Assembly (NCBI GenBank): GCA_963813815.1
Contig: CAWFAD010000012.1
Location: 185,421-249,420 of the forward strand
DNA from: an uncultured bacterium
GTDB taxonomy: Bacteria; Krumholzibacteriota; Krumholzibacteriia; Krumholzibacteriales; Krumholzibacteriaceae
Length of the DNA: 64,000 bases
Direction: 5' to 3'
The notes below the pieces were generated by a model. It ran no database searches. It saw nothing but the letters and a program-made list of their open reading frames with translations, and was not told where the DNA came from. Below, in pieces: positions 31,554-36,970 of the stretch. Every line of letters begins with the position of its first letter. Within the stretch, counting starts at the first letter, position 1. Both the position numbers and the translations under genes were made by a program.

Positions 31554-32516
31554 CTACTCGGTGGTTCGTTGTGCGGACTCATCGTCCCGTGTCCATGCTA
31601 CCCTCTCAACGATGGGGGGAATCGCTGACCTCTCGGCCAAGCTCGTTGTGCTCGCTGTCGGGCCGGGCATCGCGGTCCTCGACGATGACGAAACATCTAT
31701 CTCCGTACCGCTGCCCGGCGCGGCCGGAGCGAGGTCGCGGTTTTCGGGGTCGATCTGATACGCCCACAGGAAGGTGACGTAGTCCCCGTTGACCGCCGTG
31801 ACATACAGCTTCGCGTAATGGTAACCGTCCGTCTCGAGGAGCCGCACGATGTAGCAGTGATCGACGATCGCCTCGACCGTGCGGGAGGGGGACCAGCCAT
31901 CGAGCGGAGCGTAGTTGATCACATCGAAGTCGGTGACGTATCCGTAATCCTGCAGCTCCACGTTGGCCCGCCACGCCTCGATGATGGCGATCTCCGGCGT
32001 GCCGAAGAAGAAGATATCCGTCGTCGAAAGGTTGTACCGCTGCGGGGCGTTGCTGAGGCTCGAGAGATCGTATCCGGCGGTCTCCGGAAAAGTCTCATAA
32101 TCATCGAGAGCGAGTATGCCCTCCGGGCGCGGCGTCGCGGTGACCTCTTCGTAGCTGAGCTCGCTCTCGAGCCCGCCGGTGTCGAACGCCGTCACCGCGT
32201 AGTAGTACTGCTCTCCATTCGGCCTGATATCCTCGAAGCAGAACTCGATCTCGGTCGATTCCTCGACCAGCACGGTGCCGATATGGACGTATTCGCCGTA
32301 GAAATCCACGCCGCGGTAAACGTCGTAACCTTCGACATCGTCCTCGTAGTTCGCGAGCCAGCAGATGAGCGCCGATCCGTCGAGATTCACGGAGTAGACG
32401 TTGCGGGGCGCGGAAGGAGGGCAATCGGCCGGAACGGGCACGATCACGCGCTCCTTCTCACCGCAGGAGATGAGAAGAAGCGTCAGCACCGTTATGATCG
32501 CCGTCAATCTGTTCAT
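31554..32516 (-). CDS. Lipoprotein with fibronectin type III domain
   Basis: Lipobox LIS-C; PPSAPRN..W..GYDVYR..YYYAVTAFD..ESELS; GGAGGA RBS. Confidence 0.85.
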   Translation of the reverse strand: MNRLTAIITVLTLLLISCGEKERVIVPVPADCPPSAPRNVYSVNLDGSALICWLANYEDDVEGYDVYRGVDFYGEYVHIGTVLVEESTEIEFCFEDIRPNGEQYYYAVTAFDTGGLESELSYEEVTATPRPEGILALDDYETFPETAGYDLSSLSNAPQRYNLSTTDIFFFGTPEIAIIEAWRANVELQDYGYVTDFDVINYAPLDGWSPSRTVEAIVDHCYIVRLLETDGYHYAKLYVTAVNGDYVTFLWAYQIDPENRDLAPAAPGSGTEIDVSSSSRTAMPGPTASTTSLAERSAIPPIVERVAWTRDDESAQRTTE

Positions 32517-32543
32517 TTCATCGCTCCTCCGCGCTCGTATATC

Positions 32544-32558
32544 GCAATCGATGTGCCA
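32544..32558 (-). promoter_or_regulatory. sigma54 (-24/-12) promoter
   Basis: Perfect consensus TGGCAC-ATCGA-TTGC just upstream of the RBS and ATG at 32516. Confidence 0.85.
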
Positions 32559-32788
32559 TGTGTCGAAGAAGAGGCGAAAACGGCCGCCGAGGGCAGCTCC
32601 GCGGCAGCCAACGGGAGTGATTTGAACGAATTGCGGCGTGTGAAATTTATTCGCCGAGGCCGCGGAGACGGCGCCGTGCCTCCGGCGATGACCCGTATCC
32701 TGTCGTCGGAACTCTACAGAGATGTCCTCATCGATGGACAGAACCGATTATGGGGAACGACGAATCTCGCGGGGGGCGAAAAAGAATA

Positions 32789-32879
32789 GTCAGAGGCATA
32801 AGGTGTGAGCACCGGAGGGGATGTCCATACTCACGTTCCTTAGGATCTCGCCAATCCAAAAGTTACTTATGCCCCTGAC
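32789..32879 (-). ncRNA. Candidate ~90-100 nt three-way-junction small RNA
   Basis: P1 GUCAGGGGCAUAAG/CUUAUGCCUCUGAC (14 bp); P2 GGAUU-GGCGA-GAUCC; P3 GUGAGUA-UGGA..UCCG-G-UGCUCAC. G-U pairs work only on the minus strand; own promoter; followed by UAUUCUUUUU. Confidence 0.65.
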
Positions 32880-32886
32880 GGAGACG

Positions 32887-36300: not shown

Positions 36301-36444
36301 GTAATACTCGAGCGCCACGGAGAAGTTCTCCGTGGAAAAATGCATGTCTCCGAGCTCTTCCTCGGAGCCTATCGCATTGTACTTCGGCCCGGACTTCTTC
36401 TTTTCGTATTCGAACTCGTCCTTGCCGCGGGAATCGTCAGGCAT
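33385..36444 (-). CDS. TPR-repeat sigma54-dependent transcriptional activator (TPR array - GAF-like - AAA+ - Fis HTH)
   Basis: About 520 aa of TPR-like helices; [54 protein letters not shown]; C-terminal HTH ([16 protein letters not shown]). Confidence 0.92.
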   Translation of the reverse strand: [1019 protein letters not shown]

Positions 36445-36517
36445 CGGTTACTCCCAAAGGCAAAAGGTCGGCGATTCATCGTTTCCCGGACGAGAAAATC
36501 TCTCTGTGCTCTCGCAT

Positions 36518-36871
36518 TCAGTTCCTGTCGAGGCGCGGTTTCGAACCGATCCTTTCCAGGCTGCTATCCGCGCAATCGATGATGGTCGTCAGCGTAGAAC
36601 CCGGATTCGCGATTCCGTCCCCGGTTATTCTGCCGTTGCCGAAATCATCAGCATCGCCGCCGAGGATGCAATCCGATCCATCGTCCGACACCGGAATCTC
36701 GCCCTCGGTCATGAAGAAAAACGATCCGCAGAAGGGGAACGCGGTCGTCCGGATGAGGGCGGCGATCGACTGGATACGGAGCTCGAACGATGAACGTGCG
36801 GCAGAGACATCCGAGGAGGCGAAGATGGTGAGAACCAGTAGCGCAGAGAGGAGTGCCATGAGCCGTCTCAT
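36518..36871 (-). CDS. Small secreted protein (117 aa) with Gly/Asp-rich core; candidate signal-peptide precursor
   Basis: GAAGGAG RBS; Sec signal MRRLMALLSALLVLTIFASSDVSA; DDGSDCILGGDADDFGNG core; 73 bp upstream of the TPR activator. Confidence 0.7.
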   Translation of the reverse strand: MRRLMALLSALLVLTIFASSDVSAARSSFELRIQSIAALIRTTAFPFCGSFFFMTEGEIPVSDDGSDCILGGDADDFGNGRITGDGIANPGSTLTTIIDCADSSLERIGSKPRLDRN

Positions 36872-36941
36872 ACTACCATCTCCTTCTAACCTGGAGCCTT
36901 GCGGCCCCCCCCCACACACTCAACCCAAACCTTCACTATCA

Positions 36942-36970
36942 ATAATAATATCCCTCGCTCCCCCCGTCAA
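36942..36970 (-). promoter_or_regulatory. sigma70-type promoter for the precursor + TPR activator operon
   Basis: TTGACG-N17-TATTAT. Confidence 0.65.

Follow-up and report, generated by a model that had tools for sequence, protein, structure and literature searches.

Exported precursors paired with TPR-sigma54 activators: a candidate peptide-sensing family with predicted RNA outputs in Krumholzibacteriota

INTRODUCTION

Does a small exported protein supply a peptide signal to the cytoplasmic transcription activator encoded directly downstream of it, and which transcripts does this activator control? The question is raised by a locus on the minus strand (31554..36970) of a 64,000-nt window of contig CAWFAD010000012.1 (Krumholzibacteriaceae). 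The window is the whole stretch of DNA analyzed, and all coordinates refer to it unless another contig is named. The locus encodes a 117-aa exported precursor, a sigma54 activator with a tetratricopeptide repeat (TPR) sensor domain, two structured non-coding RNAs (RNA1, RNA2) and a lipoprotein (Table 1). An earlier note on this DNA interpreted it as a peptide quorum-sensing circuit with RRNPP-like logic, in which the activator drives small RNAs in the manner of Qrr or CrcZ. According to the sections of PMC10075063 consulted here, RRNPP receptors are known from Firmicutes and their mobile elements.

Comparative data strongly suggest that precursor and receptor form a real, phylum-wide family with predicted non-coding RNA outputs, which is apparently undescribed. 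We consider it rather probable that the processed core of the precursor re-enters the cytoplasm, binds to the TPR groove of the activator and switches sigma54 transcription of RNAs that expose a G-rich loop.

RESULTS

The activator and its phylum-wide distribution

The activator gave Pfam matches to TPR_12 and other TPR families, to the sigma54 AAA+ domain and, at its C-terminus, to HTH_8, a Fis-type helix-turn-helix (HTH) domain. In the AlphaFold2 model (predicted local distance difference test score, pLDDT, 84.5), 12 TPR helix pairs occupy residues 27–523, which confirms that about 520 aa of TPRs are fused to an intact sigma54 AAA+/HTH module. Residues 536–690, which had been overlooked in the earlier note, probably form a GAF-like alpha/beta domain, as judged from the secondary structure of the model and from Pfam GAF matches on some homologues. 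Since Walker A and B, the GAFTGA loop (here GSFTGA), the Arg finger region, the WPGNVRE motif and the HTH are all intact, the protein qualifies as a sigma54 enhancer-binding protein, and its maximal 19-residue hydropathy of 1.23 indicates that there is no membrane anchor. In the sensor-I region (~33895–33900, residues ~848–851), nearly all orthologues carry FASK instead of the usual AATN (ATN) motif, which may alter ATPase control. An invariant cysteine (C198, 35851–35853) is located in the HKNACRW loop of TPR5 and is also present in several proteins of the sister clade described below; it could serve in redox chemistry, metal binding or covalent attachment of a ligand.

The activator is a core gene of Krumholzibacteriota. 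A profile of its TPR domain matched 203 of 208 genomes of the phylum and all 125 good-quality ones (E 1e-25 or better), and a few of the weakest matches in this count (E ~1e-31 to 1e-44) may be paralogues. The source genome carries a single copy of this TPR domain together with rpoN. The named homologues belong to Krumholzibacteriota, part of them deposited as Latescibacteria. Some loci deviate from the usual arrangement. Three loci of one family (L052, L053, L167) encode an 855-aa orthologue lacking the GAF-like domain and have a cytochrome c-type gene in place of the lipoprotein, and one genome (G180) carries two long orthologues (L163, L164), both with GDADGL-type precursor cores.

The exported precursor and its acidic core

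The precursor was followed through 109 orthologue loci from 108 genomes, of which 60 were fetched later and 49 remained from the first 70 once shorter duplicates and truncated loci had been removed. The ATG at 36871 is shared, and homologues begin there with MKK, MKR or MRR; the upstream reading frame varies between 82 and 120 aa (median 107). By a crude score of our own, which is purely sequence-based, 107 of the 109 loci encode a signal-like N-terminus (basic start, hydrophobic run, A-x-A). The acidic core GD[PAGTD][DGE] was found in 108 precursors compared with 16 after shuffling, and in the only exception (G015) the reading frame is frameshifted and the core lies in another frame. When the same script was applied as a control to the source genome, a signal-like small open reading frame (ORF) preceded 26 of 1217 long genes; two of these contained an acidic core, one of them being the present locus. 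None of the six other activators picked up by the script (tblastn lists 12 others) had such a frame upstream. A survey of homologous activators for a linked small secreted ORF had been proposed as a check in the earlier note, and such a frame, with a conserved core, was almost always present.

Alignment of 33 sequences gave GGDADDYANG as order-wide core, with a column conservation of 0.90 compared with 0.32 before and 0.14 after it. These roughly ten residues are the sole conserved stretch of the mature precursor. The core codons change synonymously without restraint (37 sequences), and thus selection acts on the core peptide; an explanation at the RNA level is ruled out by the same finding. 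Other families carry cores of their own (GDADGL or GDADDL, PGDDDxPNR, GDPGxAGDG, GDPDDxIxGN, GDPD(E/D)LxGGN, GDDDDYW). An amphipathic aromatic segment precedes the core in the source order and lies at the C-terminus elsewhere. No Pfam or NCBIfam family matched the precursor. As for its expression, TTGAC is found at equal distance upstream in most loci of the family and the order (alignment inspected by eye). A small hairpin just 5′ of the Shine-Dalgarno sequence (36872–36910) is kept in the family despite sequence change, with a GU-rich leader upstream of it.

Paralogous pairs and a sister clade

Among 128 genomes, 77 gave matches to shorter paralogues (777–839 aa) that consist of TPR, AAA+ and HTH domains and lack the middle domain; a few of these matches are cross-hits to the main gene. 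When duplicates were omitted, all 41 paralogue loci had a signal-bearing precursor of their own, and 40 of these carried a core. The paralogue cores (ADPGEDPH, GEPG-x-DP, EGDPGDG, EGDP(L/I)D) track receptor clades, as judged from a quick tree with long branches. Four different cores (GDPNELGDG, GDPGDGLD, GDPLDAND, GDPGDGVL) coexist in one genome (G167). No precursor accompanied two longer AAA-TPR proteins that were also picked up by the profile. In three short paralogues (L219, L220, L224), the Walker or GAFTGA motifs are degenerate and the precursor is kept; these proteins may therefore act without sigma54. One precursor (L328) lacks most of the ADPGEDPH core carried by its sister (L223) and is possibly a signal-dead allele.

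A sister clade has activators of 990–1060 aa; most of its named members belong to Ca. Eisenbacteria. A pattern scan yielded 43 metagenome loci of this clade, 33 of which reach the TPR start and 30 of which have enough upstream DNA. All 30 carry a small ORF with GD[PN], and in 29 of them the signal-like score is at least 3.49 (inspected by eye; several are near-identical). The same lipoprotein is often encoded downstream.

The TPR groove

The concave face of TPR2–7 is basic. Its net charge averages +8.6 over 108 sequences from Krumholzibacteriota and +7.75 over 28 from the sister clade, compared with −2.4 and −3.4, respectively, for the outer helices. R156, N188, N189, K195, N229 and K236 are kept in 81–100% of both groups, and R66, K70 and R109 are found on this face in most sequences. 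For the short paralogues the groove charge was only +3.9, and the alignment is poor there. In the RapF structure as treated in the part of PMC3601957 consulted, a groove asparagine fixes the peptide backbone. On the basis of the model, a basic, Asn-lined groove fits an acidic peptide.

Fold searches with the TPR domain retrieved Pins/LGN (Z 29), Rap (27.9 for 8rte, 27.3 for 4i1a), MalT (25.5), NprR (25.1, 4gpk) and AimR (21.8, 5xyb).

Enhancers and sigma54 promoters

Both sigma54 sites (P1 before RNA1, P2 before the lipoprotein) are kept in position across relatives, and they have different enhancers, that is, upstream activator sequences (UAS). UAS1, often in two copies, was found before P1 in both sets of loci (97 of 105 and 29 of 30; 11 of 135 after shuffling), but before P2 in only 3 of 89. 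UAS2 was found before P2 in 69 of 79 Krumholzibacteriota loci and in none of ten sister loci; before P1 it was found in 3 of 135, or in 2 of the set of 105. With fixed patterns, UAS1 was recovered in 43 of 105 and 21 of 30 loci and UAS2 in 53 of 79 (shuffled means below 2). Because UAS1 and the SYP-x-LL recognition helix are both common to the two phyla, we infer that UAS1 belongs to the TPR activator. UAS2 probably serves another activator, perhaps the NtrC/NtrX-like regulator encoded upstream. The promoter noted earlier before the lipoprotein is there (TGGCAC-N5-TTGC), but with its different enhancer, the lipoprotein is not supported as a target of the TPR activator.

Among 1099 sigma54-like sites of the source genome, only P1 and one further site, located on contig C8, had a strong UAS1. 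The strict UAS1-promoter pattern, searched for in 52 genomes, recovered this locus alone, in ten genomes, and therefore gave no new targets. Another sigma54-like site of the source genome (G000:C7, ~73034, minus strand) has two UAS2-like boxes and precedes a gene that we take to be LptF/G-like; this gene and the lipoprotein possibly belong to one envelope regulon.

The RNAs

The two structured non-coding segments described earlier are corroborated by folding and by covariation. RNA1 folds with z −3.79, and 12 of 15 pairs of its closing stem covary (0 of 500 shuffles reached this, and sliding lowered the value). A strict pattern recovered its GGUGGGGUC loop in 86 of 104 loci, a relaxed one in 101. 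In the sister clade, all 26 distinct P1 sequences start with a GGAG-(G/U)GGGG-ACCUCC hairpin (inspected by eye). In at least seven sister loci (L234, L237, L248, L253, L257, L259, L261) this hairpin runs into a conserved uncharacterized ORF, so that it can also be a leader.

The C8 site (G000:C8, ~200565–200781, minus strand; loci L282–L300) belongs to an unlinked candidate RNA gene with a sigma54 promoter, UAS1, a conserved GGGGACCCCCAUCG block and a terminator. About 200 non-coding bases and the terminator follow the promoter, between convergent genes. By blastn, the gene is kept in all 15 other genomes of the genus and in none of 27 others, and 15 of 17 loci have the promoter with UAS1 at −194 to −196. 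Its folding z is only −1.7.

RNA2 folds with z −3.10, and 15 of its 31 pairs covary. The form with the C-rich loop is found in 30 of 102 loci, all within the source order. Since TTGAC lies upstream of RNA2 in 30 of 31 loci that have it, RNA2 is probably a separate sigma70 transcript here; in other families, a longer RNA transcribed from P1 may end in the GGCGAG hairpin of RNA2. The proposal that sigma54 drives the RNAs is supported for RNA1, with its conserved enhancer, promoter and covarying structure and an unlinked RNA behind the same enhancer, but not for RNA2.

Rfam gave no match in the region or in the unlinked RNA, and one chance match in eight related loci. 6S RNA was rejected as identity, since RF00013 had no match in the region and 6S lies elsewhere in the source genome (83 bits). 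Hfq was found in none of 128 genomes of the phylum (control rings in 5 of 14), and Hfq-dependent small RNAs of the Qrr/CrcZ type were rejected on this ground. CsrA is present in 84 of the 128 genomes, in none of four from the source genus and, for two families in which the RNA1 loop is retained, in none of eight each; a CsrA sponge (CsrB/RsmY type) was rejected because CsrA is absent from families keeping this loop. These data lend no support to the Qrr- or CrcZ-like mode of action assumed earlier. PMC13443453, in the part consulted, treats CsrA in these phyla. When 2203 start regions were ranked as targets of the RNA2 C-loop, the precursor was placed at 1211, the activator at 1704 and the lipoprotein at 238, so that none is singled out, nor does the RNA1 loop single out any of these three. 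Co-folding yielded no stable RNA1-RNA2, RNA1-RNA3 or RNA2-RNA3 duplex.

Lipoprotein, neighborhood and coordinates

The lipoprotein model (pLDDT 89.6) contains an FN3 domain, with matches up to Z 13.6, and a second domain that the wide fold search barely covered. The DUF4466 protein 4ei0 was matched at E 4e-6, and atlas searches with the lipoprotein returned only clusters without a name. An NtrC-like regulator lies no more than 800 nt upstream of the activator unit in 41 of 45 loci, and the lipoprotein no more than 1300 nt downstream in 30 of 37. Further downstream are an M6-like protein with a tail of the type IX secretion system (T9SS) type (28237–31389) and a PorV/PorQ family gene (27215–28144), and thus T9SS-type genes occur in Krumholzibacteriota. 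On the contig of the window (G000:C12), three near-identical Ser/Thr kinase-like genes are arranged in tandem on the minus strand. The coordinates are compiled in Table 1. It can be seen that the sigma70 promoter, both reading frames, the inverted repeat, the AT-rich tract and the −24/−12 site are all located where the earlier note had placed them.

Table 1. Features of the precursor-activator locus and its surroundings (positions in the 64,000-nt window)
Feature	Coordinates	Strand	Basis and remarks
NtrC/NtrX-like response regulator, conserved upstream neighbor	37064..38455	−	Pfam/NCBIfam family searches
Sigma70-type promoter of the precursor-activator unit	36942..36970	−	10/12 to consensus
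Exported precursor ORF, 117 aa	36518..36871	−	signal peptide aa 1–24 (predicted), amphipathic aromatic segment, acidic core, variable tail
Precursor core GGDADDFGNG (aa 71–80), candidate ligand	36632..36661	−	column conservation, free synonymous codons
TPR-GAF-AAA+-HTH sigma54 activator, 1019 aa, cytoplasmic	33385..36444	−	Pfam, model, hydropathy
12-TPR sensor domain of the activator	34876..36366	−	TPR2–7 concave face basic and Asn-lined
Enhancer UAS1, distal copy (consensus TATAAA-n5-TTTATA)	33308..33324	−	192 nt before −24 box
Enhancer UAS1, proximal copy	33245..33261	−	129 nt before −24 box
AT-rich tract with IHF-like site	~33160..33191	−	by sequence, unscored; IHF consensus from PMC3045617 (part consulted)
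Sigma54 promoter P1 (−24/−12)	33117..33132	−	9/12 to own consensus in source genome; position kept across relatives
RNA1, ~140 nt, rod, U-rich end, G-rich loop AGGUGGGGUCUC at 33014–33003	32964..33102	−	ends inferred
Sigma70-type promoter before RNA2	32887..32916	−	9/12 to consensus
RNA2, 91 nt, three-way junction, GGCGAG loop and C-rich loop CAUCCCC	32789..32879	−	folding, covariation
Enhancer UAS2, TGTCC-n8-GGACA	32723..32740	−	182 nt before P2
Sigma54 promoter P2 of the lipoprotein, TGGCAC-N5-TTGC	32543..32558	−	sequence match
Lipoprotein, FN3 domain and beta domain	31554..32516	−	model, fold search

DISCUSSION

Taken together, our data favor the following sequence of events. After export by Sec, the precursor would be cleaved, either in the periplasm or extracellularly, and a short acidic peptide from the GDADD region would return to the cytoplasm, probably by an oligopeptide ABC (ATP-binding cassette) importer; the three family-5 peptide-type ABC binding proteins encoded in the source genome are a possible import route. 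Binding of this peptide to the basic, Asn-lined groove of TPR2–7 would switch the AAA+ activator, which, sitting on the UAS1 pair, would open the sigma54 promoters of RNA1 and of the unlinked RNA gene. Both RNAs may act without Hfq through the exposed GGGG-containing hairpin, which could be a pairing seed or a protein decoy.

Several observations weigh against this re-import reading. Cores and enhancers were counted on the very sets from which the pattern and the matrices had been derived. Three loci lay outside the tally; the precursor is present in L011 and L029 but missing from L009, whose activator match contains an internal stop. We found no conserved cleavage site around the core, no outer-membrane exit route and, by Pfam and NCBIfam, no T9SS sorting domain on the precursor. 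The M6-like neighbor was rejected as processing protease since its HEXXH zinc motif is missing. Groove positions were taken from model helices and from the usual TPR register, not from coordinates, and the part of PMC3601957 consulted states that the role of the groove asparagine holds for TPRs generally. The fold of the TPR domain fits LGN/Pins no less well than it fits Rap, NprR and AimR, and sequence searches ranked kinesin light chain best, with Rap (E 1.5e-8 to 2.8e-6) below kinesin light chain and LGN; since these proteins match equally well or better, no RRNPP ancestry is shown for the TPR domain. The correspondence of paralogue cores and receptor clades is co-inheritance and no proof of co-evolution because the genes are linked. 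The GDADD core is common to three families, unlike the strain-specific dialects of quorum sensing. With one core serving a whole order, and with neither cleavage site nor exit route found, a classical quorum role appears disfavored, and the term quorum sensing used in the earlier note is not established.

Alternatively, the precursor might be a secreted anti-activator. The unexported full-length protein would bind to the groove via its core in the cytoplasm, Sec export would remove it, and the activator would report secretion capacity or envelope stress, with neither re-import nor a signal between cells. Export-monitor logic of this kind is known from FlgM and ExsE. Such a mechanism explains the fit between groove and core without import across two membranes, and it is consistent with long, mostly unconserved precursors with an amphipathic segment and with a single-copy core gene at the main locus that has an order-wide core and adjoins envelope and T9SS-type genes. 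However, several paralogous pairs with distinct cores per genome exceed the need for one gauge, and in some precursors of the sister clade the core directly follows the A-x-A motif, as if cleaved free (by eye). We consider an export monitor unlikely, though it is the main rival.

It is less likely still that the two proteins never make contact. In this case, the small protein, co-transcribed with the activator, would work in the periplasm, for instance as an acidic binder of cations or as ligand for a kinase in the membrane, and another cytoplasmic protein would be the partner of the TPR domain. A weak resemblance of the core to Asp/Gly-rich calcium-binding repeats was indeed noted (its atlas score, 0.87, fell short of the lead threshold), TPR domains have many partners, and a response regulator is the conserved upstream neighbor. 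Pairing, however, holds in all 41 paralogue loci (the survey covered the pairs themselves), only about ten residues are conserved, and the groove charge is opposite to that of the core. A cis-acting arrest leader of the SecM/VemP type, in which translation of the activator would be set by ribosomes that stall at the acidic core until Sec pulls on the nascent chain, would account for a signal peptide and a short motif under protein-level constraint directly upstream and co-directional, but we regard it as very improbable because the distance from core to stop (sampled deciles 29–55 residues) and the gap to the activator (30 to 119 nt, 48 loci) are variable and the conserved basic groove is left unexplained.

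Returning to peptide re-import, we compared the system with established circuits. It shares with RRNPP(A) of Bacillota (Rap-Phr, NprR-NprX, PlcR-PapR, AimR-AimP) a small gene for a predicted Sec-type propeptide that adjoins the gene of a TPR receptor located in the cytoplasm, the presence of several paralogous pairs in one genome, the groove asparagine and the fold matches. An internal core is likewise described for NprX in the part of PMC10075063 consulted. In contrast, the receptors studied here comprise ~780–1050 aa with an N-terminal TPR region and a sigma54 AAA+ output, the precursors comprise 82–135 aa with an acidic core, the hosts are diderm phyla, the predicted targets are RNAs, and no specific receptor homology is shown. 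The criteria given in those sections of PMC10075063 are a propeptide of 10–100 aa with a Sec signal peptide and a receptor of 250–500 aa with TPRs, encoded by direct neighbor genes; the TPR region of RRNPP receptors is C-terminal, and clusters with an N-terminal TPR were filtered out. Here, adjacency and TPRs agree, but the 117-aa precursor and the 1019-aa receptor (as well as the short paralogues) exceed the size limits, and the TPR region is N-terminal. Thus, RRNPP-like logic stands as far as the pairing, the TPR and a groove chemistry fitting an acidic peptide are concerned, and fails on size and layout. By its predicted parts, the system would work like RRNPP signaling, yet we do not class it as RRNPP.

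On the output side, GlrK/GlrR (QseE/QseF)-GlmY also combines a sigma54 activator, an IHF site and multiple upstream boxes before a small RNA. In shape, UAS2 corresponds to the GlrR box TGTC-N10-GACA, as given in the part of PMC3045617 consulted. The input of that system is a kinase plus a receiver domain, however, and in our locus the GlrR-like box marks the lipoprotein promoter and not the RNA promoter, and the RNAs have no Rfam match to GlmY or GlmZ. In LuxO-Qrr and CbrB-CrcZ, a signal-controlled sigma54 activator has one adjacent and one unlinked small RNA as outputs, an arrangement that we also predict for the TPR activator. Unlike these systems, it has no receiver domain, its lineage lacks Hfq, and its RNAs belong to no known family. 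Secreted anti-regulators and export monitors (FlgM, ExsE, SecM, VemP) likewise link a small exported protein to a cytoplasmic regulator, but there is no sequence or family match to them, and a TPR sensor with paralogue-specific cores is foreign to them. Full-text literature searches found no description of the pairing; most subscription journals and all supplements were outside their scope, so that a mention in a table could escape. PMC12316311, in the part consulted, mentions TPR once, in an unrelated context.

In its widest form, the re-import reading amounts to peptide communication that evolved independently in two diderm candidate phyla, with up to eight orthogonal channels per genome, in which acidic G-D/E-x-D peptides are read by TPR-sigma54 activators and the core channel acts via Hfq-independent G-loop RNAs of an undescribed class. 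We advance this extension tentatively and have more doubt than confidence in it.

All parts needed to test the circuit in a laboratory strain, from candidate ligand and receptor to enhancer and promoter, are present at the locus, and the paralogous pairs lend themselves to specificity swaps. The lineage, which lacks Hfq, carries three unannotated structured RNAs. If peptide re-import is true, RRNPP-like logic would cross two membranes in diderms, a peptide input would be added to the known controls of sigma54 activators, and this would be the first regulatory circuit for two uncultured phyla.

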